From Escherichia coli (GTDB lineage: Bacteria; Pseudomonadota; Gammaproteobacteria; Enterobacterales; Enterobacteriaceae), in NCBI RefSeq assembly GCF_013315695.1, contig NZ_CP054353.1: DNA of 64,000 bases. One strand, 5' to 3'. Of this stretch, positions 14,318 through 60,320 are shown in pieces. The position numbers and the translations under genes were made by a program. The notes under the pieces are model-generated. The model saw only the letters and a program-made list of their open reading frames with translations, was not told the origin of the DNA and searched no databases. How positions within the stretch are numbered: the first letter of the stretch is position 1; the number at the start of each line of letters is the position of its first letter.

Positions 14318-16180
<1,863 letters not shown>

Positions 16181-16204
16181 CAGGGGCCTATTAATACTTA
16201 TTGT

Positions 16205-17104
16205 TTATTTATTACGCTGGATGATGTAGTCCGCTAGCGCTTCCAGTGCCGAGGTATCGAGTGACTGTTCAGTCAGTTGTTTCAGCGACTGACGGGCATC
16301 GTCGATCAGATCCCGGGCTTTCTTCCGGGCTTGCTCAAGACCCAGAAGTGCAGGGTAGGTACTTTTACCAAGTTGCTGGTCGGCACCCTGGCGTTTTCCC
16401 AACGTTGCAGTATCTCCCACCACATCCAGGATGTCATCCTGAACCTGGAAGGCAAGGCCGATGCTCTCTGCGTACTTGTCGAGTACAGGCAGAGCACGAC
16501 GTCCTTTATCTCCGGCGCTTAATGCACCAAGGCGAACGGCGGCGCGAATCAATGCGCCGGTTTTATGACGATGAATACGCTCAAGCGCCTCCAGAGGTAC
16601 GTGTTTGCCTTCCGCGTCTAAATCTAATGCCTGACCACCGCACATTCCGGCAATACCGCTGGCGCTCGCCAGTTCAGAAATCATCGAAATTCTGTCGCGA
16701 TCCGACACTTCCGGCATATCAGCATCGCTTAAAATCGAGAACGCCAGCGTTTGTAAAGCGTCACCAGCGAGAATCGCGTTCGCTTCGCCAAACTTCACAT
16801 GGCAGGTCGGCAAACCGCGACGCAGATCGTCATCATCCATCGCCGGTAAATCATCATGAATTAATGAGTAAGCGTGGATACACTCAACGGCGGCAGCGGG
16901 TGCGTCCAGCGTGTTTGTGCTAACGCCGAACATATGACCGGTGGCATAAACCAGGAAAGGTCGCAGGCGCTTACCACCTAATAATGCGCCATACTGCATG
17001 GTTTCGACCACGGGAGTGTTCTGAAAGGGCAGTGGGGCGATAAAACGGCTCAGCGCCTGGTTGGCCTGCTTAACGCAGGCTTCGAGTTGCTGCGGAAAGT
17101 CCAT
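16205..17104 (-). CDS. ispA: farnesyl diphosphate synthase
   Basis: 299-aa ORF with two aspartate-rich motifs (LIHDDLPAMDDDDLRRG, FQVQDDILD). Confidence 0.95.
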   Translation of the reverse strand: MDFPQQLEACVKQANQALSRFIAPLPFQNTPVVETMQYGALLGGKRLRPFLVYATGHMFGVSTNTLDAPAAAVECIHAYSLIHDDLPAMDDDDLRRGLPTCHVKFGEANAILAGDALQTLAFSILSDADMPEVSDRDRISMISELASASGIAGMCGGQALDLDAEGKHVPLEALERIHRHKTGALIRAAVRLGALSAGDKGRRALPVLDKYAESIGLAFQVQDDILDVVGDTATLGKRQGADQQLGKSTYPALLGLEQARKKARDLIDDARQSLKQLTEQSLDTSALEALADYIIQRNK

Positions 17105-17346
17105 TACTCATTGTCCGGTGTAAAAGGGGTTAGAGAGGCGTCTTCATTGTCAGACAGCAGAATTTGCACGCGCTGTTCGGCTTGTTGTAATTTGGCCTGC
17201 CCCTGACGTGCCAGTTGCACGCCGCGTTCGAACTCGTTCAGCGCCTCTTCCAGCGGCAGGTCGCCACTTTCCAGACGGGTTACAATCTGTTCCAGCTCGC
17301 TCAGCGCCTTTTCAAAGCTGGCGGGCGCCTCATTTTTCTTCGGCAT
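17104..17346 (-). CDS. xseB: exodeoxyribonuclease VII small subunit
   Basis: 80-aa ORF; stop overlaps the ispA start. Confidence 0.93.
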
Positions 17347-17551
17347 AATGAATGTCTGACTCTCAATATTTTTCGCCCCGTCATGGTAACGGACTCAGGG
17401 CAAATAGCAAATAACGCGCAATGGTAAGGTGATGTGCGCAGCAAAGCGATGTTAGTGGTATACTTCCGCGCCTGGATGCAGCCGCAGGTGTGGGCTGCTG
17501 TATTTTTCCCTATACAAGTCGCTTAAGGCTTGCCAACGAACCATTGCCGCC

Positions 17552-19000
17552 ATGAAGTTTATCATTAAATTGTTCCCGGAAATCACCATCAAAAGCCAAT
17601 CTGTGCGCTTGCGCTTTATAAAAATCCTTACCGGGAACATTCGTAACGTTTTAAAGCACTATGATGAGACGCTCGCTGTCGTCCGCCACTGGGATAACAT
17701 CGAAGTTCGCGCAAAAGATGAAAACCAGCGTCTGGCCATTCGCGACGCCCTGACCCGTATTCCGGGTATCCACCATATTCTCGAAGTCGAAGACGTGCCG
17801 TTTACCGACATGCACGATATTTTCGAGAAAGCGTTGGTTCAGTATCGCGATCAGCTGGAAGGCAAAACCTTCTGCGTGCGCGTGAAGCGCCGTGGCAAAC
17901 ATGATTTTAGCTCGATTGATGTGGAACGTTACGTCGGCGGCGGTTTAAATCAGCATATTGAGTCCGCGCGCGTGAAGCTGACCAATCCGGATGTGACTGT
18001 CCATCTGGAAGTGGAAGACGATCGCCTCCTGCTAATTAAAGGCCGCTACGAAGGTATTGGCGGTTTCCCGATCGGCACCCAGGAAGATGTGTTGTCGCTC
18101 ATTTCCGGTGGTTTCGACTCCGGTGTTTCCAGTTATATGTTGATGCGTCGCGGCTGCCGCGTGCATTACTGCTTCTTTAACCTCGGCGGCGCGGCGCATG
18201 AAATTGGCGTGCGTCAGGTGGCGCATTATCTGTGGAACCGCTTTGGCAGCTCCCACCGCGTGCGTTTTGTCGCTATTAATTTCGAACCTGTCGTCGGGGA
18301 AATTCTCGAGAAAATCGACGACGGTCAGATGGGCGTTATCCTCAAACGTATGATGGTGCGTGCCGCGTCCAAAGTGGCAGAACGTTACGGCGTACAGGCG
18401 CTGGTTACCGGTGAAGCACTCGGCCAGGTGTCCAGCCAGACGCTGACCAACCTGCGCCTGATTGATAACGTCTCCGATACGCTGATCCTGCGTCCGCTGA
18501 TCTCTTACGACAAAGAGCACATCATCAACCTGGCTCGCCAGATTGGCACCGAAGACTTTGCCCGCACGATGCCGGAATATTGCGGCGTGATTTCCAAAAG
18601 CCCGACGGTGAAAGCGGTTAAATCGAAGATTGAAGCGGAAGAAGAGAAGTTCGACTTCAGCATTCTCGATAAAGTGGTTGAGGAAGCGAATAACGTTGAT
18701 ATCCGCGAAATCGCCCAGCAGACCGAGCAGGAAGTGGTGGAAGTGGAAACCGTCAATGGCTTCGGCCCGAACGACGTGATCCTCGATATCCGTTCTATCG
18801 ATGAACAGGAAGATAAGCCACTGAAAGTCGAAGGGATTGATGTGGTTTCTCTGCCGTTCTATAAACTGAGCACCAAATTTGGCGATCTCGACCAGAACAG
18901 AACCTGGCTACTGTGGTGTGAGCGCGGGGTGATGAGCCGTCTGCAGGCGCTCTATCTGCGCGAGCAGGGCTTTAACAATGTGAAGGTGTATCGCCCGTAA
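17552..19000 (+). CDS. thiI: tRNA 4-thiouridine synthase / thiazole biosynthesis protein ThiI
   Basis: 482-aa ORF with THUMP, PP-loop (SGGFDSGV) and C-terminal rhodanese-like domains. Confidence 0.95.
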
Positions 19001-19013
19001 TATGTGGTTGTAA

Positions 19014-19040
19014 CGTCGCATCTGGTCAGATGCGACGTTT
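19014..19040. terminator. hairpin terminator between convergent thiI and yajL
   Basis: perfect 10-bp stem cgtcgcatct / agatgcgacg with 4-nt loop followed by TTT. Confidence 0.6.
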
Positions 19041-19053
19041 GCCGCATCCGACA

Positions 19054-20518
<1,465 letters not shown>

Positions 20519-20560
20519 TGTTCCTCCTCACCCGCAACCACTCCGGGTGTTCAATAAGGC

Positions 20561-20608
20561 TATCCCTTAATTGTGCATGCTGTTGCGACTATGCACAATT
20601 AAGGGATA
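20561..20608. promoter_or_regulatory. 18-bp perfect inverted repeat (tatcccttaattgtgcat / atgcacaattaagggata, 12-nt spacer) in the divergent panE-yajQ intergenic region
   Basis: reverse complement of the left arm equals the right arm exactly. Confidence 0.5.
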
Positions 20609-20685
20609 CGTCCTGGTGCAGGACTGTTGGTTATTTAACTTTGCAGGTATTATGCTTCGCATCAAAAATGAAGGTAGAGGAAAAG

Positions 20686-21177
20686 ATGCCATCTTTCGAT
20701 ATTGTCTCTGAAGTTGATCTTCAGGAAGCACGTAACGCGGTCGATAACGCGAGCCGCGAAGTGGAGTCCCGTTTTGACTTCCGTAATGTTGAAGCCTCAT
20801 TTGAGCTGAACGACGCCAGCAAAACCATCAAAGTGTTGAGCGAGTCCGATTTCCAGGTCAATCAGTTGCTGGATATTCTGCGTGCCAAGCTGCTGAAGCG
20901 CGGCATTGAAGGCAGTTCACTGGATGTACCGGAAAATATCGTTCATAGCGGTAAAACCTGGTTTGTGGAAGCGAAACTGAAACAGGGCATTGAGAGCGCG
21001 ACCCAGAAGAAAATCGTCAAGATGATTAAAGACAGCAAACTGAAAGTGCAGGCGCAAATTCAGGGCGATGAGATCCGTGTAACGGGTAAATCTCGTGATG
21101 ATTTGCAGGCTGTCATGGCGATGGTACGTGGGGGCGATCTCGGTCAGCCGTTCCAGTTCAAAAACTTCCGCGATTAA
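20686..21177 (+). CDS. yajQ: nucleotide-binding protein YajQ
   Basis: 163-aa product starting [18 protein letters not shown]; ATG at 20686 inside the longer track ORF. Confidence 0.93.
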
Positions 21178-21204
21178 TCGCGACAACCTGCGCTTTGTTC
21201 ATGT

Positions 21205-21295
21205 CAGATGCGGCATGAACGCCTGATTTGGCCTACAAAGGTTTATAACTCAGGAACTTTGTAGGCCTGGTAAGCGTAGCGCAGCAGGCAATTTC
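21205..21295. repeat. REP-like palindromic units (BIME-like) between yajQ and yajR
   Basis: gatgcggc...gcctgat..ggcctac motif plus an inverted copy; 11-bp inverted repeat ggcctacaaag / ctttgtaggcc. Confidence 0.5.
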
Positions 21296-21304
21296 GCCTC
21301 GCTT

Positions 21305-22669
21305 TTATGCCTGGCGAATTGCCTGTTCAACCTCAAAGCGATTCGTCACTTTGCTGTCGATTTTCACATACGCTGAATGTTCTTCTTCTGCAATCAACAC
21401 TTCTTTGACGCCTTCAGTTTCCAGCAAACGTACTTTTAACGCTTCGTTTGCGGCAATGTCCGCCGGGATTTCAATGCGCAAGCTGCTGACATACGGCGGT
21501 TCTTTCATGGTACTGGCGACTGCCAGCCACACTGCGGCCAGCATTGCGCCAGCGAGAAATACGCCCTGACCGTCAAACATGCCGTCAATCCAGCCGCCCA
21601 GCGAACCGCCAATCGCCACGCCAAGAAACTGGCTGGTGGAGTAAACACCCATCGCCGTACCTTTGTAACCTGCTGGCGATTCTTTACTGATAAGTGAAGG
21701 CAGAAGGGCTTCCATCAAATTAAACGCCACAAAGAAAAGCTGCACGCCGACCACCAGTTGCCAGAACTGCGTTTGTGCGTTCCACAACACAATTTCCGCA
21801 ACCACGATCAACCCGACGCAAAAGACAAAGACTTGCTTCATTTTGCGCTTAACTTCAGCGTAGATAATGAAAGGCACGACCGAGCCAAAGGCGATTAACA
21901 TCGTTGCCAGGTAGACCTTCCAGTGTTCAGCCGCCGGGAACCCCGCATCAGCCATCTGTCCGGGCAGGGCAACAAAGGTCGACATCAGCAAAATATGCAG
22001 ACACATAATGCCAAAGTTGAGTTTCAGCAGCCGCGGTTCCGCCAGCACTTTACTGAAACTGCCTTTCACCATTCCGGACTCACGATTAAGTACGTGAGTG
22101 CTACTGTTGGGCACAACCCAAATGGTCAACGCAATGCCGGTTGTTGCCAGAATAGCGATCATCCAGAACAGCGCGTGCAGCCCAAGTTTGTGAGTGATGA
22201 TCGGGCCAAGTACCATCGCAATGGCAAAGGTAATGCCAAAGCTCACGCCGATAAACGCCATCGCTTTGGTGCGGTTTTGTTCGCGCGTAAGATCGGAAAG
22301 CAGCGCCATAACGGCAGCGGCAATCGCACCGGAGCCTTGTAGCGCCCGGCCCAGAATAATTCCCCAGATGGAGTCAGAGAGCGCAGCGATAACGCTACCG
22401 GCGGCAAACACCGCCAGCCCACCGACAATTAATGGTTTGCGACCAATGCGGTCTGAAAGCAGGCCAAACGGAATCTGAAAAACGGCCTGCGTCAGACCAT
22501 AAATACCAATGGCAATACCGATTAATGCTTCGCTGGCACCTTGCAGAGCCATGCCGTACGTGGTCAGAACCGGCAGAACCATAAACATGCCCAGCATGCG
22601 CAACGAGAATACGGTGCCTAAACCCCAGGTCGCGCGCCGCTCACCTGGCGTCATTTTATAATCGTTCAT
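21305..22669 (-). CDS. yajR: MFS transporter YajR
   Basis: 454-aa product starting MNDYKMTPGERRA, AAGAGG ribosome-binding site 5 nt upstream; 12 TM-like segments plus C-terminal soluble domain. Confidence 0.92.
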   Translation of the reverse strand: MNDYKMTPGERRATWGLGTVFSLRMLGMFMVLPVLTTYGMALQGASEALIGIAIGIYGLTQAVFQIPFGLLSDRIGRKPLIVGGLAVFAAGSVIAALSDSIWGIILGRALQGSGAIAAAVMALLSDLTREQNRTKAMAFIGVSFGITFAIAMVLGPIITHKLGLHALFWMIAILATTGIALTIWVVPNSSTHVLNRESGMVKGSFSKVLAEPRLLKLNFGIMCLHILLMSTFVALPGQMADAGFPAAEHWKVYLATMLIAFGSVVPFIIYAEVKRKMKQVFVFCVGLIVVAEIVLWNAQTQFWQLVVGVQLFFVAFNLMEALLPSLISKESPAGYKGTAMGVYSTSQFLGVAIGGSLGGWIDGMFDGQGVFLAGAMLAAVWLAVASTMKEPPYVSSLRIEIPADIAANEALKVRLLETEGVKEVLIAEEEHSAYVKIDSKVTNRFEVEQAIRQA

Positions 22670-23075
22670 TACCACCTCTTAAAAAAATGCCCACATAGTG
22701 TAGTGCGGAGCGCATGTTGGGTAAACAGAGTGTTAATGAGAAAATATTACAGAGGAGAATAGTTTGTGTGTCAGGTATGTTTATTTTGCATTCATAAAAT
22801 GAATGCTCTATATGTTGAAAAAATTATTCTTAAAGCTAAATAGTTTTACATCAAAAGTAATAATATTATTTCTTGATTGCTATGTGCATTTTTTATCTTG
22901 CGAACATGCTATTTTTATCTCACTAAATAAACGATTTGGTGACATCGATGATAATGTTTCAGGTTAAATGTGTGCTTATTACTTGGGCCTTTATTGTACT
23001 GTATTTATTCATTAAATGGATGTTTGGTGGTTAATTATCATGGAAATATATGACAGAGAGAGCATAAAGGTATAC

Positions 23076-24011
23076 ATGTTAACTAAAAGAATATTATTTT
23101 CTTTAATGCTAATAGTTTCACCATGCGTGGTGGCAAGCGAGAAAGCGCATGAATTGTATGACAGCATATACGGTGGTCAACCTGCGCCCGATGTTATAAA
23201 TAGACTGCATAAAATGGCTGAATTGGGAGATGTCGACGCGCAGAGCCTGTTAGGCTGGGAATATTATCAGCCTCGCTTTGATACCAAACCTGATGTTCAG
23301 GAAGCGATTAAATGGTTTGAGTTAGCCGCTAAACACGGTGATAGAGAAGCTCCGTTAGCGCTGGGGAGTATCTACTACGACGGTGAGCTGGTGCGGGTGG
23401 ATTATGCCAAAGCGTATGCACTATTTAATCAGGCCGCGCAATACGGTGTGAATTTAGCATGGTCCAGGTTGGGCATGATGTACGCCAATGGTCAGTATGT
23501 TGAGGTCGATTGTAAGAAAGCGAAGGAATATCTTGATAAAGGTGTCCACATTTATGGTGGTCCGGAAGACTTTCTGGCTACATGTCGAAAAGACATGATT
23601 GACAGAAAAATGGTTGACGATACGTTACCCGTGATCACGGTTACCCGTTCTGGGATGCGGGATAATTTTTTAGATAAAGGTTTTTCCTGCATGGATAGCC
23701 TCTTCGCCACCACCAATAAATTAGGCGAAGTGGCCAATCTTCGCGTGACATTCAGCATTCGTAGCCCATCCGGTAAGGAGATTAACCAAACGGTTGGCTT
23801 CGCGCCTTTCGGTTTAAACCGGCTGAATATTAGCTTTACTGATTACATATTTGATTCATTTACCAGTAATTCGTCTCTAATTCTTTATAAACCGGAATTT
23901 GAGCGAAAATCTTGTGCAACTGTAAGGACCACAATCGTTGCCGCAACGGCAACCATTAACGGCAAGGATGTGGAGTTGCTGAAAGCGGGGGCAATTGAAC
24001 AAAAGTGGTAA
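23076..24011 (+). CDS. secreted Sel1-like repeat (SLR/TPR-like) protein with uncharacterised C-terminal domain; absent from the K-12 arrangement as I recall it
   Basis: ATG at 23076 with AAAGG ribosome-binding site; N-terminal signal peptide (cleavage around VVA-SE); repeats of LG..Y..G.GV..D..KA..WF..AA..G; AT-rich codon usage. Confidence 0.75.
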   Translation: MLTKRILFSLMLIVSPCVVASEKAHELYDSIYGGQPAPDVINRLHKMAELGDVDAQSLLGWEYYQPRFDTKPDVQEAIKWFELAAKHGDREAPLALGSIYYDGELVRVDYAKAYALFNQAAQYGVNLAWSRLGMMYANGQYVEVDCKKAKEYLDKGVHIYGGPEDFLATCRKDMIDRKMVDDTLPVITVTRSGMRDNFLDKGFSCMDSLFATTNKLGEVANLRVTFSIRSPSGKEINQTVGFAPFGLNRLNISFTDYIFDSFTSNSSLILYKPEFERKSCATVRTTIVAATATINGKDVELLKAGAIEQKW

Positions 24012-24066
24012 CGCTGCTCAGTCCCCGGCTGAGGCAAAACTAGCCCTGGCCGGAGGCGATAATAAT

Positions 24067-24609
24067 CTAAGCCGCGAGAATATGCTGAATCGCTAAAAAC
24101 ATCGGTACAGCACCGAAAACATTGGGCCTCGCTGAAAGCTGAACAAAGCCGAGGCGAGTATAAAAGTTAATGGCGGCAGGGTCAGCATCAAGATAAACCC
24201 CTTTAATTGGTAATGCACGGTGAATTATTTTTACATGTTCAAAAAAATCACATAGTAGGTCCTGACCAAAGCCCCGCTTTTGATATTTCCGCGCTACCCC
24301 TAACATGACTAATCTGACAACACCAATCTCTGAAGGTTGTGAACCCTGAAGGACGCCAGAAACGCGTTGTTTTTCCAGCGAATATGCCGTAAAAGTACAG
24401 ATGCCAATCAGTTCACCACTTTGTCTGTCAATAAGAGCTTTAGCAGCACAGTCGCTATTACGCACACTTTTCTTTAGCGATGCGCGTACAAATTTATCGA
24501 TAACAGGGTTACCGCAATCAAACTGTTTTTGCCCAGGATAAGTAATATCAGACTGATAATTACAGGAGAGGACTATGGGCAGAGTAATCTCTTCATGCTT
24601 GTCGACCAT
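24067..24609 (-). CDS. GNAT-family acetyltransferase toxin (TacT/AtaT/ItaT-like) of a type II toxin-antitoxin pair
   Basis: 180-aa ORF with FDCG motif near the N-terminus and acetyl-CoA-binding motif QKRGFGQDLL; start overlaps the stop of the upstream antitoxin gene. Confidence 0.75.
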   Translation of the reverse strand: MVDKHEEITLPIVLSCNYQSDITYPGQKQFDCGNPVIDKFVRASLKKSVRNSDCAAKALIDRQSGELIGICTFTAYSLEKQRVSGVLQGSQPSEIGVVRLVMLGVARKYQKRGFGQDLLCDFFEHVKIIHRALPIKGVYLDADPAAINFYTRLGFVQLSARPNVFGAVPMFLAIQHILAA

Positions 24610-24904
24610 CGCTGTTTTTCCTTTTCATTAACGCCTTGAGGGCGAGCGTCGGTTGAGCAGGTTCAGCGATGAGTTGGTTCATCAGTTCCCAGCTTTGATT
24701 CGAAAGCTCACGGCGACGTTGGTTATCAAGCACACTTTCGGCGCGTTCCATAGCTGCGCTCAAAATAAAAGCGCTTAAATCTACCCCAACGGCTTGCGCA
24801 GCTTCACGAAGTTTGTTTTTGGCGTCGGGACTGGTTTTGAGTTCAACCCGCGCATTTTTCAGCGTTTTATCGATATCGGGTAGAGCGACTGTTTTTCCAG
24901 GCAT
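24593..24904 (-). CDS. DUF1778/ribbon-helix-helix antitoxin (TacA/AtaR-like) partner of the GNAT toxin
   Basis: 103-aa product from ATG at 24904 with AAGAGG ribosome-binding site; RHH-like N-terminus; 17-nt overlap with the toxin gene. Confidence 0.7.
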   Translation of the reverse strand: MPGKTVALPDIDKTLKNARVELKTSPDAKNKLREAAQAVGVDLSAFILSAAMERAESVLDNQRRRELSNQSWELMNQLIAEPAQPTLALKALMKRKNSDGRQA

Positions 24905-25009
24905 TATGACCTCTTTGATTAACTGAATGAAATCGTAGGGAGTCGATCTCATGCATAATACGGCTATCAACCGTGTGATTAATTTATGTGCATATGCTCA
25001 CTCTGTCAA

Positions 25010-25034
25010 GAGATACGGTTATTAGCCGTATCTC
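25010..25034. promoter_or_regulatory. inverted repeat gagatacgg-N7-ccgtatctc upstream of the antitoxin gene; candidate operator
   Basis: perfect 9-bp arms, about 105 bp upstream of the antitoxin ATG. Confidence 0.35.
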
Positions 25035-25046
25035 TGATCTCAGACA

Positions 25047-25076
25047 ATAAAAAAGGTGCCGTAGCACCTTTTTTAT
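25047..25076 (-). terminator. rho-independent terminator of the cyoABCDE operon
   Basis: stem aggtgc-cgta-gcacct flanked by A6 and T6, directly downstream of the cyoE stop. Confidence 0.7.
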
Positions 25077-25088
25077 AGAGAGGTTGTA

Positions 25089-25979
25089 TTACCACACAGC
25101 AGCCAGCAGCGTATGCGAGTTCGGCACCATAAAATCAACGGACATCATCACCGAGAGGGCAGTGATGGCGATGATAGAGAAGCCGAACAGCTTGCGCGCC
25201 CAGATTCGATCATCAGCAACTTTATAGCCGCGCAGAGCCATGCCTAACCACCAGACGCTCACCGCAGCGGCGACCACCAGATATTTATACCCAGCGTAGC
25301 CGCCAAGAGAGAGCATCAGCGTGGCAACGGCAAAGGCGATGATATACAGCGTGATGTGATTCTTCGCCACCGAAATGCCTTTCACCACCGGCAGTACCGG
25401 AATGTTTGCCGCCTGATAATCCTTAAAGCGGAAAATGGCGATGGCATAAGAATGAGGCATCTGCCACAGGCTGAAGATAGCCAGCAGGATCGCTGCGCCG
25501 CTATCGAACTCGCCGGTTACCGCACAGTAACCGATCACCGGAGGCGCAGCGCCGGAGAGCGAACCAATCAATGTGCCGTAGACAGAATGACGTTTCATGT
25601 ACAGGCTATAAACGCCGACATAAACCACAAAGCCCATCACCCCCAGCCAGCAGGCCAGCGGATTCGCGCCAAACCACAGCAGCATAAAGCCAGCAAAGCC
25701 TAGCAAGGTGGCGTACACCAGCGAGACAGCAGGAGAGATCAGGCCTTTAACCAGCACCCGATTCTTCGTCCTTTCCATCTTTCTGTCGATATCCCTGTCG
25801 ATGTAGTTGTTAAACACACAACCCGACGCCACAACCAGTGACACCCCAACCAGCGTGTAGATAAACAGGGGATAATCAATGCTGCCCTTTGAGGCCAGCA
25901 GGAATCCCCCAATCACCGAGATCAGGTTGCCAAAGATGATGCCTGGTTTCGTTACTTGCAGGTATTGCTTAAACATCAT
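25089..25979 (-). CDS. cyoE: heme O synthase (protoheme IX farnesyltransferase)
   Basis: 296-aa product starting [18 protein letters not shown]; track ORF extends 15 codons upstream. Confidence 0.93.
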
Positions 25980-25990
25980 AACCGCCGCTC

Positions 25991-28927
<2,937 letters not shown>

Positions 28928-28936
28928 TCAACCCCT

Positions 28937-29884
<948 letters not shown>

Positions 29885-30343
29885 TTAACGACCTCAATTC
29901 CACGGGATCTGGTGGCGTTTAAAGTGTGTGGGCATTTTACGGGAAGGTTACATTACTGTAAACATGATTAAATTCCTGTTACTTGGATTTGGCTTCCAGG
30001 TCACATATGTTGCAAAACATATCGGATTGATTTTAAGAAGCTGTTGCAAAAGGGCGTTATAACAAAAGGGGAGTGCAGAAGGAGTCTGGGCGGGCAATTG
30101 GTATAACCAATGCGAAATAAAACAATTATTTAACAAATAATTATCATTAAAGTGACAACTTGGTAGTGAGAAAATAAAGCTTCATTAGCTGAATCGTGTA
30201 AGAAAAATAGAATTCATAAATGGCGTCAATAATTTCCAAACGCTAAGCCGCACAAAAGAACAAATATTAATAAGCGATGCTGATGTTTATTTAGCCGTAA
30301 TAATTACGGCGAGTGATTACTACAGCTAAATAATATTTACAGA

Positions 30344-31819
30344 TTACGTCAGATGTGTTTTTCGTAGCGCCAGATAATCCAGTAAACCACCAAGCACGAC
30401 GCCAGAAAGGGCGACTAAAACCCCGACTTCCAGCAGAGCAGGCAGGAAAGAGAAGTGCGTCAAATCCAGCGCGTCCATCGTCAACAGCAGTAACCACACG
30501 GCCAACAGGCTGACGCCCGCCGCCAGTGTCCACATGGCAAAGGCATAACCTGCCGGATATTCGGTACGGGAGATAAAGTTGTCATTTACTCGTGTATATT
30601 CAAGCGTCTGGCGACAAATCAGCAGTAAAATAAGCCCTGGTACGGCAGCGGCGACGGAGAACAGATAGAATGTCGACCAGCCGTGTGCTTCAACAAACCA
30701 ACCCGCCACGGGGCCGACATAAACTCGCCCTACAGCAGAAAGCGCTGAGAGCAGGGCAAATTGAGTAGCGGAAAATGACTTATTACACAGCGTCATTAAC
30801 AGCGCGACAAAGGCTGATGTACCCATCCCGCCACAGAGGTTTTCGAAAAAGACGGCTGCACCCATGCTGTAGAGATGCTTATCAGTAATCGACAGCAGCC
30901 AGTAACCGGCGTTAGATGCACCTTGTAAAATGCCGAAAATCAGCAGTGCACGGAACAGCGACAGGCGCTGCATCAAAATCCCACCGTACAATGCGCCAAC
31001 AATGGTCGCCAGTAAGCCAAGCGTTTTGTTAACCACGCCTACTTCACCCGCATCAAACCCGACGCCGCGAATCAAAAACGTGGTTGTCAGGCTCATAGCG
31101 AATGCGTCGCCCAGCTTATACAGCACGATAAGAAGCAAAATAAGCCAGGCATTATTGCGACCAAAGAAATCGCGCAGAGGTGCAACAACCGCTTGTTCCA
31201 GCGTTTTGGGCACAGGAATGGTGTCGGTGGGTTCTGGTGCAAGCAACGTCGCGATAATACAGGGGATCAACAGCGCCGCCATCAACCAGTACATGCCCTG
31301 CCAGCCCAGCCATTTATCTGCCAGCCACAGGGCTAAGCCGCCGGAAACCAGCATCCCTAAACGGTAACCCAGCACGCTGATTGCCGCGCCCGCACCACGT
31401 TCTTCTGCCGGGAGCACATCGGTTTTCCACGCATCGAAGACAATATCCTGGGAGGCAGAGCAAAAAGCGATCACCACCGCCAGTGCCGCCATCCAGCGGA
31501 GCTGGGTGCCTGGTTCGAGAAAACCCATCGCCGCAATGGCGACTAATAACAGAATTTGCGTGGCGAGCAGCCAACCGCGCCGCCGCCCGAAAAATGGGGG
31601 CGTGTAGCGGTCCATCAGTGGTGACCAGAGGAATTTAAAAACGTAAGCCTGGCCTACCAGAGAGAAGAAACCAATGGTTTTGAGATCGATATTCTCGACC
31701 GTCATCCAGGCCTGTAAGGTGCCGGACGTCAGGGCGAGCGGTAGCCCGGAAGCAAAACCCAGAATCAGCAATATGGCTGAACGTGGCTGTTGAAAAATAC
31801 GTAAATATTGACTGGACAT
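30344..31819 (-). CDS. ampG: muropeptide permease AmpG (MFS)
   Basis: 491-aa ORF, AmpG sequence. Confidence 0.95.
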   Translation of the reverse strand: MSSQYLRIFQQPRSAILLILGFASGLPLALTSGTLQAWMTVENIDLKTIGFFSLVGQAYVFKFLWSPLMDRYTPPFFGRRRGWLLATQILLLVAIAAMGFLEPGTQLRWMAALAVVIAFCSASQDIVFDAWKTDVLPAEERGAGAAISVLGYRLGMLVSGGLALWLADKWLGWQGMYWLMAALLIPCIIATLLAPEPTDTIPVPKTLEQAVVAPLRDFFGRNNAWLILLLIVLYKLGDAFAMSLTTTFLIRGVGFDAGEVGVVNKTLGLLATIVGALYGGILMQRLSLFRALLIFGILQGASNAGYWLLSITDKHLYSMGAAVFFENLCGGMGTSAFVALLMTLCNKSFSATQFALLSALSAVGRVYVGPVAGWFVEAHGWSTFYLFSVAAAVPGLILLLICRQTLEYTRVNDNFISRTEYPAGYAFAMWTLAAGVSLLAVWLLLLTMDALDLTHFSFLPALLEVGVLVALSGVVLGGLLDYLALRKTHLT

Positions 31820-31862
31820 GGGCGTCTACAGGCCCGGCTTGCACCGGGCCAGAGGGCAGAAA

Positions 31863-32441
31863 TTAACGCGCGTTCTGCTTGATGAATTCGTGGATGCTGG
31901 TGTCCTGAGACATATCAGCGATGGTATCGGTCAGCACACTGTTAACCGCATCGGCGATATTTTTGTTGGAGGCCTGGAACGCACCTTCAACGTTGTAGCT
32001 GGCACGATAGTTCTTGGTCATTTTGTTGCCATTCTGCGCGGTAGCGATGATGGCGATATCCGCTTTGGTGGCGATGTTATAGCGCACGTTGCCCTGGGAC
32101 ACATCAGCATACAGTTGGCTAACGATGATTTGCAGATTAACCGGGCCATTCGGACCGACCATGTAACCACGCGCGGTCATCTGTTTTTCCAGCACTTCTT
32201 GCAGCAGGAAACGCAGATCGCGGGAGGCGGTCAGGGTAACGATTTGATTATCGCGGGTGACTTTTGCCAGCGCCTGATCGGTACGCTGATCGGCACCATT
32301 AATGCTTACGGTGACGCCCATCAGGCTTGGATCCTGCTGTGGCAGTGTAATCGTCGGGGAAACTTCAATAGTTGTTGGCGGTTTTGCGCATCCTGCAAGC
32401 ATAAACAGAGCAACTAACGGGAAGAGGATTTTTTTGAACAT
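31863..32441 (-). CDS. yajG: lipoprotein YajG
   Basis: 192-aa product starting MFKKILFPLVALFMLAGC (lipobox); ATG inside the longer track ORF. Confidence 0.92.
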   Translation of the reverse strand: MFKKILFPLVALFMLAGCAKPPTTIEVSPTITLPQQDPSLMGVTVSINGADQRTDQALAKVTRDNQIVTLTASRDLRFLLQEVLEKQMTARGYMVGPNGPVNLQIIVSQLYADVSQGNVRYNIATKADIAIIATAQNGNKMTKNYRASYNVEGAFQASNKNIADAVNSVLTDTIADMSQDTSIHEFIKQNAR

Positions 32442-32745
32442 GTTCGGGCTCTCAGAGACTCTTAAGCGTGTTTGGTAAAAATTCCCGCCATCATAACATT
32501 GCCAACGGCGAGGGGAAGTGGGTAAGGCATGTAAATTCATCATGTTGACGAAATAATCGCCCCTGGTAAAAGAAACGCTGATGCGAGGCCTGTGTTTCAA
32601 TCTTTAAATCAGTAAACTTCATACGCTTGACGGAAAAACCAGGACGAAACCTAAATATTTGTTGTTAAGCTGCAATGGAAACGGTAAAAGCGGCTAGTAT
32701 TTAAAGGGATGGATGACATCTCAGCGTTGTCGGAGGAGATATTTC

Positions 32746-33063
32746 ATGATGATACGTGAGCGGATAGAAGAAAAATTAAGGGCGGCGTTCCAACCCGTAT
32801 TCCTCGAAGTAGTGGATGAAAGCTATCGTCACAATGTCCCAGCCGGCTCTGAAAGCCATTTTAAAGTTGTGCTGGTCAGCGATCGTTTTACGGGTGAACG
32901 TTTTCTGAATCGTCATCGAATGATTTACAGTACTTTAGCGGAGGAACTCTCTACTACCGTTCATGCGCTGGCTCTGCATACTTACACTATTAAGGAGTGG
33001 GAAGGGTTGCAGGATACCGTCTTTGCCTCTCCTCCCTGTCGTGGAGCAGGAAGCATCGCGTAA
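32746..33063 (+). CDS. bolA: stress-induced morphogene regulator BolA
   Basis: 105-aa product starting [11 protein letters not shown]. Confidence 0.93.
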
Positions 33064-58434: not shown

Positions 58435-58986
58435 TTACAATTTTTTAATTATTCTGGCTGGATTACCGCCCACGACAACGTTGTCCGGGACATCTTTTGT
58501 GACAACTGCACCTGAGGCTACCACGACGTTATCACCAATGGTCACACCAGGGTTAATGATCGCGCGTCCGCCAATCCAGACGTTATTACCGATGGTGACG
58601 GGTTTCCCCAGTTCAGCACCGCTATTACGTGCTACAGGGTCGATGGGATGTGTTGCCGTGTAGATATGAACGCCTGGTGCCAACATACAGTTATCACCGA
58701 TGCGAGTAGGGCAGACATCAAGCATCACGCAATCGAAGTTGGCGAAAAAATTATTGCCGAGAAAAATGTTATAGCCATAATCACAGCGAAACGTTGGCTC
58801 AATATAAGCCTCTGTCACCTGACCGAATAAATCAGCGAGAATTTGCTGGCGTAATGTGTGCTCTTCCGCCAGGGAATGATTGTATCGGTGAATAAGCTGA
58901 CGAGCGCGCAGGCGATCGCGAGATAACGTCTCATCTGCCGAGCGATACAACTCACCAGCAATCATCTTTTCTTTTTCTGTGCTCAT
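58435..58986 (-). CDS. maa: maltose O-acetyltransferase
   Basis: 183-aa ORF with hexapeptide-repeat acyltransferase sequence. Confidence 0.93.
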
Positions 58987-59157
58987 TACTGACCTCCGGT
59001 TGCTGAAAATGCGGCAACACAGTAAGACGAAAAGTCAGTGAAGAGAACGTTCCCATTACGTCTGTGTGATGAAGATCACATAGGGTATGCCTTCATGGCG
59101 ATAAAGTATAAAATTCTTAATAAACAGCTGGTTATAGCTCCGAAAGCCAATTATTTA

Positions 59158-59376
59158 TTAGCGAATAAATTTCCATACTGAGGAAGGGATCTTGTCGTAC
59201 AGTTTATTCATAGTCAATTCGGCGAGGCGGTGATCTGCGGCTGAGTAAAATACCGCCAGTTCATTATCTGATAATTCGTATTTATTTTTCTCGATAACAC
59301 GCTCCAGCGTGTCAATTGTCTGGCAACGACGTAAACGCATTAAATAATCGGTTTTCGTTAAAGGTTTTTCGGACAT
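59158..59376 (-). CDS. hha: haemolysin expression modulator Hha
   Basis: 72-aa product [35 protein letters not shown]... Confidence 0.95.
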
Positions 59377-59401
59377 ACTTCTACCCATGGTTGTAATAAT
59401 T

Positions 59402-59776
59402 CTAACAAGATAAACTCGCAGGATTCTCTTTCGTCGCATTGACAAAACAACGGAATAGTCGATTACCTGACTTCCGCCATTTCTGAAGATCCTGCATATT
59501 AATACCATAACTGCTGAACAACATAAAGGTGTCATCCAGATATTCGTCGATCTGCTCAATGAGCTTATTGTCTTCATTATACTTAATTTTGTAATTAAGT
59601 GCGAAGGTCGCAATATGCTCAATCAGTTCATTCAACTGGAGGTTGATCGCCGAGGTTGGGTCGTTAACCCAGCCATGATTGCTTTCTTCAAGGTTTGCAA
59701 GACAGTCATGATACAGGGTTTCACAGAGAAACTTAAGCTGTGCGATATCATGTCTTTTGGGTGAGTATTCATCCAT
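59402..59776 (-). CDS. tomB: Hha toxicity modulator TomB (YbaJ)
   Basis: 124-aa ORF immediately upstream of hha. Confidence 0.93.
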
Positions 59777-60320
59777 AACGCGTCCCCTTCTTAGCGGTTG
59801 AACTAACGGACACCTTTCGGGATGGAAAAAACTTACTGACCTGGACTTGCCCTCTCGTTTGTTAGCTTAACTATAAGCCACTCTTTGCAGGTTTTCATCG
59901 CATTATTACGAAAAATTACAATTAGGAGGAAGCGGGACAGGACTTACTTTTTCATACTAGCACTAACCCGCAGCAGGTAAAAGCAGTTTGCTCGAACTGT
60001 TCATAACATTTCAGGATTATCGCCAGATGAAATTGGTAACACTAATACCAGGATTGCTCTGAATATGACGTAATAACCGAGGAATGAATAAAGAATTACC
60101 GCAAATAATTAAGAATAGCCTCTAAATGATTATGGATTATTAAATCTATTAGCGCTACTTAATATAAATTAACTAACAATCAGTATTTTTTATGAATTTT
60201 ATACGTGTTTAATACTGGTTTTCGTATGAGATCCTGAGTTGGTGGTTCAATGACTCCTTAATGTTCGTAGGTTATGCATAAAAAAGGCCGCTTGCGCGGC
60301 CTTAGTGATTACACGTTGTA

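Follow-up and report, generated by a model that had tools for sequence, protein, structure and literature searches.

The yajR-cyoE spacer of Escherichia coli: an AT-rich islet with an ItaRT toxin-antitoxin pair and a Sel1-repeat gene

The ItaRT toxin-antitoxin pair, a member of the GNAT/DUF1778 family that also contains TacAT, AtaRT and KacAT, was described from Escherichia coli HS, and a virtually identical pair is present in BL21(DE3) (Wilcox et al. 2018, PMC6125619). The HS toxin ItaT acetylates Ile-tRNA and depends on Y150, with Y150A abolishing toxicity, while the antitoxin ItaR neutralises ItaT and the ItaR-ItaT complex represses the itaRT promoter (PMC6125619). Its targets were subsequently widened to Val- and Met-tRNA (Zhang et al. 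2020, PMC7367177). Two further described proteins, both of uropathogenic E. coli, are relevant here: EsiB (c5321), which is built of Sel1 repeats, and IrmA, which is secreted, fibronectin-III-like and able to bind the interleukins IL-2, IL-4 and IL-10 (PMC4807369). In this study we analysed 64,000 nucleotides of an E. coli chromosome (contig NZ_CP054353.1; hereafter the window), in which a GNAT/DUF1778 pair and a gene for a predicted exported Sel1-repeat protein, here called sel1, form an AT-rich islet between the core genes yajR and cyoE.

The original prediction for this DNA held that yajR and cyoE, neighbours in K-12, are about 2.4 kb apart here, and took the AT-richness of the intervening segment as a sign of horizontal acquisition. 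The genes are indeed displaced, with a gap of 2,413 bp in the window against 148 bp in K-12 and Nissle 1917, or ~2.27 kb of net extra DNA relative to K-12. We consider it probable that the segment belongs to an old, two-allele yajR-cyoE spacer and carries two independent convergent units. Low guanine-plus-cytosine (GC) content and absence from K-12 suggest recent transfer, yet the segment has diverged along with its flanks and occupies the same site in several genera. The predicted gene content, a secreted Sel1-repeat gene with a GNAT/DUF1778 pair, was borne out by the confirmed coordinates and by Pfam, and the locus is laid out as follows.

21305-22669, minus strand: yajR, flanking core gene
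22670..22765, no strand: yajR-proximal spacer, allele-specific; ~61% identical to the K-12 spacer, 82-98% among Sel1-occupied Escherichia
22766..23075, plus strand: AT-rich non-coding block, presumed sel1 promoter/leader; 28.1% GC; homologous to the region upstream of the long Sel1 gene of Escherichia sp. E4694
23076-24011, plus strand: sel1, 311-residue predicted exported Sel1-repeat protein (PGAP start)
24012..24066, no strand: sel1-itaT spacer between the convergent genes; 55 bp, 60% GC
24067-24609, minus strand: itaT, GNAT aminoacyl-tRNA acetyltransferase toxin of 180 residues (PDB 7BYY match, Tyr150 kept)
24593-24904, minus strand: itaR, DUF1778/TacA1 antitoxin of 103 residues; 17-nt overlap with itaT
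24905..25046, minus strand: candidate itaRT promoter/operator region; sigma-70 consensus match and inverted repeats
25047..25076, no strand: perfect 13-bp hairpin 3' of cyoE, presumed cyoE terminator; also in the empty allele; right border of the islet
25089-25979, minus strand: cyoE, flanking core gene

A longer sel1 open reading frame from 23016 was rejected as a caller artefact, and the PGAP start at 23076 was preferred.

Age, distribution and composition of the islet

Between the window and BL21, synonymous divergence (dS) was 0.071 for sel1, 0.126 for itaT and 0.044 for itaR, and 0.098, 0.122 and 0.080 for yajR, cyoE and yajQ in the flanks. Islet dS is similar to flank dS, and the per-segment nucleotide identities agree. 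Because of this similarity, and because the same slot is occupied in other taxa, the islet appears to be an old resident of the site rather than a recent insertion.

The whole islet, with all three genes, was found in 1,367 of 5,426 complete E. coli genomes and a partial islet in 2; the remaining genomes have an empty site, with a span of 628-630 bp across the query flanks. E. coli is essentially two-state at this position, 25% occupied and 75% empty, and the interval proved accessory, in keeping with the original prediction. Over this region the window is 100% identical to the blood isolate AF3 (NZ_OZ547117), and the islet is 99.6-99.7% identical to that of IAI39, SMS-3-5 and CE10, which we take to be phylogroup F reference strains. 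Carriers fall into two main classes: 85 genomes share 99% identity or more with the window, and ~1,265 lie near 96.2%, among them the A/B1 strains BL21(DE3), O104:H4, O26:H11 and O111. The islet is absent from K-12 and B2 strains.

The same slot was compared in other taxa. The scan of species-representative genomes used one pattern within the Sel1 repeat, which gave mostly generic matches; of the 80 loci in its output, only ~8 proved to be genuine relatives over the full length. The contents of the yajR-cyoE slot were:

E. albertii and strain R32_14_1F: short Sel1 gene and a gene for an unrelated 325-residue exported protein
Escherichia sp. E4694 (locus L013; cryptic clade): long Sel1 (499 residues), short Sel1, itaT and itaR
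Pseudocitrobacter: long and short Sel1 with itaRT
Salmonella serovar Cerro: a pair of long Sel1 paralogues; the slot is empty in another Salmonella contig
Citrobacter: genes of the DUF1493/DUF8209 families, or an empty slot

In Pseudocitrobacter, itaT is truncated in one contig and intact in another (L016, which lacks yajR on the contig). All Sel1 proteins at the site share the C-terminal domain described below. The 325-residue protein has a signal peptide and replaces itaRT in E. albertii (L008:6048-7025) and in R32_14_1F, a divergent E. coli-like goat isolate (L005:5167-6144); L015:4812-5759 probably encodes another protein of this type. It has no Pfam match on record and no NCBIfam or PADLOC match. 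Since it stands in the place of itaRT, the second position of the slot is itself interchangeable. The Citrobacter slots hold two DUF1493 genes or DUF8209 with DUF1493 (L097:2900-3750, L101:2995-3803), or are empty (L100, L096). The pattern suggests that the yajR-cyoE spacer is a variable spot common to the family Enterobacteriaceae. At a separate Pectobacterium carotovorum locus (L017:10760-11485), a GNAT toxin of 150 residues (24% identical to ItaT) and an 89-residue DUF1778-like antitoxin lie ~2 kb from a Sel1 homologue. No GNAT/DUF1778 pair was found near the Sel1 homologue in Pectobacterium L018, L019 and L022, whose sequence spans the corresponding region, or in Affinibrenneria L020. A conserved Sel1/toxin-antitoxin linkage in Pectobacterium was rejected, with a pair near only 1 of 6 such loci, and the P. 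carotovorum arrangement is probably a coincidence.

The difference between occupied and empty forms reaches as far as the yajR start codon. Over the ~90 nt next to yajR on its upstream side, all Sel1-occupied Escherichia, E. albertii among them, show 82-98% identity to one another and 76-80% to Pseudocitrobacter, as against ~61% to K-12 and Nissle 1917. Within yajR, K-12 and BL21 match at every one of the final 450 nt as far as the start codon and then differ at 39% of spacer positions, and the K-12 spacer shares ~70% identity with its empty counterparts in Salmonella and C. farmeri. A clean insertion point at ~22765 was considered and discarded when allele-specific sequence proved to extend through the entire spacer to the first codon of yajR. 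Informative spacer sites in the window, K-12, occupied Pseudocitrobacter and empty C. farmeri grouped by state in 9 cases, by species in 3 and otherwise in 0; with the window, K-12 and occupied and empty Salmonella the corresponding numbers were 6, 4 and 2. By these comparisons the empty K-12 spacer reads as a separate allele and not as a scar, and the view that the alleles differ over the entire spacer and would be swapped through the flanks is well supported.

The comparison with E4694 also bears on the origin of the E. coli arrangement. Window positions 22600-23052 align at 77% with the E4694 yajR start and the region upstream of its 499-residue gene, and 23076-25100 align at 93% with the E4694 locus from the short Sel1 gene onward. 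The base-level junction lies at ~23048-23060, where E. coli runs to the ATG of the long gene and then into the last ~20 nt of that gene and a short spacer. It follows from this junction that the AT-rich block would once have stood upstream of the long paralogue, whereas it now precedes the short sel1. On this alignment the E. coli form reads as a deletion derivative of a four-gene form comprising long Sel1, short Sel1, itaT and itaR.

GC content is 51.0% in the whole window and 42.7% in the islet (22766-25045); only 0.6% of 2,280-bp windows across the 64 kb are as GC-poor, outside the normal range as the original prediction had expected. The first 1.3 kb, which it had singled out as AT-rich, does have a GC content of 40.2%, but the toxin-antitoxin half is low too, and extreme AT-richness is limited to ~300-400 bp of non-coding DNA, namely the 310-bp block 22766-23075, whose 28.1% GC is the lowest for that size in the whole window. 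Its claim of AT-biased sel1 codons held: the coding sequence has 44.4% GC overall and 44.9% at third codon positions (GC3), against a GC3 of 59% in yajR and 67% in cyoE. The values for itaT are 43.5% and 36.5% (GC3), and itaR has 49.4% GC. Islet-gene GC3 was low (0.36-0.54) in every taxon compared, against 0.66-0.71 in the flanks, and low GC is thus a stable property of these genes that does not date their arrival. The step from AT-richness to horizontal acquisition is not upheld, since islet dS matches the flanks, the same slot is used in other taxa and GC3 is low everywhere. Two other stretches of the window are GC-poor, 29700-30200 and 58900-60100 (37-41% GC); the open reading frames of the latter, beside a large acrB-like gene, are presumably hha/tomB, ordinary K-12 genes.

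The islet has atypical GC content and a patchy distribution, as genomic islands do, and none of the hallmarks of an integrase-type island: no integrase or recombinase, no tRNA or attachment site and no direct repeats. No integrase or transposase reading frame occurs among the window open reading frames at the islet, a tRNA scan of 15000-33000 found no tRNA, an Rfam search of 22000-25600 at E<=1 gave no match, and a repeat search of the islet borders returned no direct repeats beyond chance level. These searches agree with the original prediction, which had seen no integrase, tRNA or flanking direct repeats. An 11-nt repeat pair at 22793/25128 was dismissed as chance; one copy lies within cyoE.

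The ItaRT pair and the Sel1-repeat protein

Judged by sequence, the toxin-antitoxin pair is the published ItaRT module, which the original prediction had not recognised. Aligned end to end with PDB 7BYY, the toxin agrees at 175/180 residues (97%; E=1.3e-115), keeps the catalytic Tyr150 in the context AAINFYTRLGF, and is matched in Pfam by the GNAT families Acetyltransf_7, _10 and _1. The antitoxin matches Pfam TacA1 (E=1.3e-17) and, in the PDB, chains of KacA and AtaR. itaR lies immediately upstream of itaT in the same predicted operon. Upstream of itaR, on the minus strand at 25009..24981, TTGACA-17-TAAATT matches the sigma-70 consensus at 10/12 positions, a consensus match only, and inverted repeats lie at 24958-24974/25015-25031 and 25009-25021/25023-25035; promoter activity was seen for the HS region equivalent to 24905..25046 (PMC6125619). 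Position 115, Asp in the crystallised ItaT, is Gly in the window allele, within KRGFGQ. We take this stretch to resemble the acetyl-CoA-binding Q/R-x-x-G-x-G/A motif of GNAT enzymes.

In the plasmid collection, ItaRT-like pairs stand alone on Citrobacter, Rahnella and Serratia plasmids, with 71% nucleotide identity on those of Citrobacter freundii. Across the plasmid and phage collections sel1 was on no record, and true plasmids carried only distant itaRT-like pairs. Three full-length E. coli 'plasmid' matches were set aside: the records, at 1.2-4.8 Mb, are too large for ordinary plasmids and probably consist of chromosomal DNA under a plasmid label. The only matches in the phage collection, OR845150.1 (1-1081; 6.5 kb) and OR844664.1 (1567-2270; 2.3 kb), are both short and unannotated and have E. 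coli itaRT at one end at 97-98% identity, which looks like host DNA and not a phage-borne pair.

The Sel1 protein has a signal-like N-terminus, three Sel1 repeats, a linker helix and a C-terminal beta-sandwich (~residues 185-311). Its N-terminus reads MLTKRILFSLMLIVSPCVVA followed by SEK, a type conserved across the family, and was judged by eye to be a signal peptide; export is usual for bacterial Sel1-repeat proteins, most of which are secreted or periplasmic. Three copies of Pfam PF08238 cover residues 54-155 (best E=2.4e-06), and the C-terminal ~150 residues have no Pfam match and contain four cysteines conserved family-wide. The best PDB sequence match is EsiB/c5321, with E=3.5e-39 summed over the repeats; further multi-repeat matches are Oxalobacter Sel1 proteins and SEL1L. 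AlphaFold2 gave a mean predicted local distance difference test score (pLDDT) of 85.6 both for the whole protein and for the domain alone. In the model, paired helices form an alpha/alpha solenoid over residues 17-155, with pLDDT mostly >85, and its top Foldseek matches are Sel1 structures, EsiB among them. For the modelled C-terminal beta-sandwich, the closest solved fold is that of E. coli IrmA, and the two count as the same fold; identity in the structural alignment is 17%, and when the whole PDB sequence set was searched at E<=10 with a profile of the domain, 5EK5 (IrmA) was not among the matches.

The domain is rare. In a set of 1.84 billion proteins its profile picked out only 33 cluster representatives. 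The match is C-terminal in all representatives of at least 250 residues but one, a 3,584-residue protein with a weak match at several internal sites. Family members in AFDB50 come from E. coli, Shigella, many Salmonella, Pectobacterium, Affinibrenneria, Morganella, Proteus, E. fergusonii and Achromobacter. The ratio of nonsynonymous to synonymous substitution rates (dN/dS) is 0.2-0.3 for sel1 and 0.03-0.05 for the flanks, which fits a gene under selection that encodes a functional but fast-evolving exported protein. At the same time sel1 is dispensable and decaying in some lineages, as seen from frameshifts (it is annotated as frameshifted, with ~90 bp missing, in some F-type strains, among them CREC-544 at L006:2307-3151), from an IS1 insertion sequence inside the islet of the B1/A-type strain PK8276, and from the Shigella sequences of the family, which are fragments. 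The UniProt name 'zinc-dependent hydrolase' was rejected as unsupported by Pfam or fold. PADLOC returned no meaningful match for the islet and NCBIfam only far-below-cutoff repeat matches (MerG, AlgK); searches of the literature on the locus, on the accessions of the Sel1 protein and on how itaRT is spread over the phylogroups yielded nothing of relevance. Going by fold only, the Sel1 protein most likely acts as a binding protein in the periplasm or outside the cell.

Competing explanations for the islet

These data allow us to propose how the locus may work and how it arose. In the itaRT unit, ItaR would bind and neutralise ItaT and the pair would repress its own promoter; free ItaT with acetyl-CoA would acetylate the amino group of Ile-tRNA, and also of Val- and Met-tRNA, and translation would stop. 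The product of the sel1 unit would be Sec-exported and would join a short Sel1 alpha-solenoid to a disulfide-containing IrmA-like beta-sandwich, with expression from the 28%-GC upstream region. The segment would descend from the four-gene form that the cryptic Escherichia clade and Pseudocitrobacter still have; in E. coli a deletion would have removed the long paralogue, beginning at its start codon and ending ~20 nt short of its stop. Occupied and empty forms coexist in E. coli and would be exchanged by homologous recombination in the yajR and cyoE flanks, which would explain the absence of integrase, tRNA and repeats. Such recombination is probably the swap mechanism, and it is the simplest answer to the original prediction's remark that the mechanism of acquisition was unclear. 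The chromosomal itaRT is probably an addiction module that penalises loss of the segment.

A recent genomic islet, foreign AT-rich DNA put into the spacer of some lineages by a mobile mechanism, would account for the low GC content and for the 75% of E. coli genomes, K-12 and B2 strains among them, that lack the islet, and the ItaRT-like pairs on Citrobacter freundii plasmids show that this toxin-antitoxin family moves. We regard it as very unlikely: dS is the same in islet and flanks when deep E. coli lineages are compared, orthologues occupy the site in E. albertii, cryptic clades, Pseudocitrobacter and Salmonella with low GC in all, the borders have no integrase, tRNA, repeat or insertion sequence, and sel1 is on no plasmid or phage record. 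That the three genes form one functional system, with the Sel1 protein for example sensing an envelope or phage signal that triggers ItaT, is extremely unlikely, even though sel1 and the pair are linked in 1,367 of 1,369 E. coli carriers (a co-occurrence that the original prediction had proposed to look for), have the same neighbours in Pseudocitrobacter and the cryptic clade, and have a parallel in the one P. carotovorum genome with an unrelated pair 2 kb from a Sel1 homologue. For the near-perfect linkage in E. coli, common descent of the 2.3-kb block is explanation enough. The genes are convergent, with separate transcription units and upstream regions; Sel1 genes occur without the pair in E. 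albertii, R32_14_1F and Salmonella, and the pair occurs alone on plasmids; four other Pectobacterium/Affinibrenneria loci have no nearby pair and PADLOC has no matches. Moreover, cloned ItaRT works as a self-contained pair (PMC6125619). sel1 and itaRT are probably not one system.

Two readings concern the role of the Sel1 proteins. In Pseudomonas, Sel1-repeat periplasmic proteins of the Tli5 family confer immunity to lipase effectors and occur as tandem paralogues. By analogy the Sel1 proteins of the yajR-cyoE slot could be orphan immunity proteins against lipase effectors that competitors deliver to the periplasm by type VI secretion. Predicted export, tandem paralogues (two genes in Salmonella, Pseudocitrobacter and E4694), fast evolution relative to the flanks and patchy presence speak for this. 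It is nevertheless quite unlikely: no locus examined has an adjacent effector gene, no solved immunity protein is among the sequence or fold matches, and an extra beta-sandwich domain is, to our knowledge, not a feature of known Sel1 immunity proteins. A broader proposal, which we hold to be unlikely, is that the Sel1 proteins with their IrmA-like domain are an unrecognised Enterobacterales family of exported binding proteins, directed at host immune factors in the manner of IrmA or serving in immunity to competitors' effectors. The occupied and empty alleles would then be a trans-species polymorphism under long-term balancing selection, with itaRT guarding the occupied one against deletion.

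Several points weigh against the preferred account of an old two-allele spacer with two independent units. The itaT and itaR dS values to the E4694 copies (0.08 and 0.03) are below those of yajR and cyoE (0.20 and 0.16), and the window genes resemble those of the cryptic clade more closely than those of BL21, although these genes are short and the values noisy. This hints at some exchange of itaRT between lineages, so that strict vertical descent would be too simple. The great age of both alleles is suggestive only, resting on ~90 nt of spacer and the 9:3 and 6:4:2 site counts. The Sel1 signal peptide is an unscored reading by eye, and the disulfides of the C-terminal domain are predicted from the four conserved cysteines only. 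ItaRT activity data come from the HS allele, to which the window allele is 97% identical. The addiction role of itaRT is one that we infer; its biological role is given as unknown in PMC6125619.

Relation to known systems

The locus sets the ItaRT module in a genomic and evolutionary context, where the papers cited here give locus tags and not neighbouring genes. It also draws attention to a small, predicted exported Sel1 family that occurs in the laboratory strain BL21(DE3) and in many pathogenic E. coli as well as Salmonella, with a C-terminal domain that resembles the vaccine candidate IrmA. Two modest leads emerge: the IrmA-like domain family, and a possible sharing of the occupied and empty alleles between species.

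The window pair closely follows ItaRT of HS and BL21(DE3) in its toxin and its conserved Tyr150, in having a TacA1/DUF1778 antitoxin gene upstream of and overlapping the toxin gene, and, as in BL21(DE3), in its chromosomal position beside cyoE. It differs from 7BYY by D115G, Q131R, A151T, T161R and A164V (7BYY residue, then window residue), and from the BL21-type ItaRT in that the window allele is of the F-type class, 3.7% diverged in DNA. In its N-terminal half the Sel1 protein is like EsiB, HcpC, LpnE and the Oxalobacter Sel1 proteins, all Sel1-repeat alpha-solenoids; EsiB has ~11 repeats against ~3-4 in the window protein and lies at a different locus, and the added C-terminal beta-sandwich is missing from every solved Sel1 protein among the matches. 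IrmA (C1275, PDB 5EK5) is a stand-alone 13-kDa domain-swapped dimer, whereas in the window the domain is fused to Sel1 repeats.

As a locus, the islet shares with classical genomic islands and with variable core spacers exchanged by recombination its atypical GC content, its patchiness and a fixed site between two core genes. Unlike classical islands it lacks integrase, tRNA and direct repeats, measures only 2.3 kb, diverges in step with its flanks, and has both states in common with other genera. The islet is a published toxin-antitoxin module beside a member of a known Sel1-repeat class with an unusual C-terminal domain, and it fits within current understanding of these systems, which it leaves unchanged.

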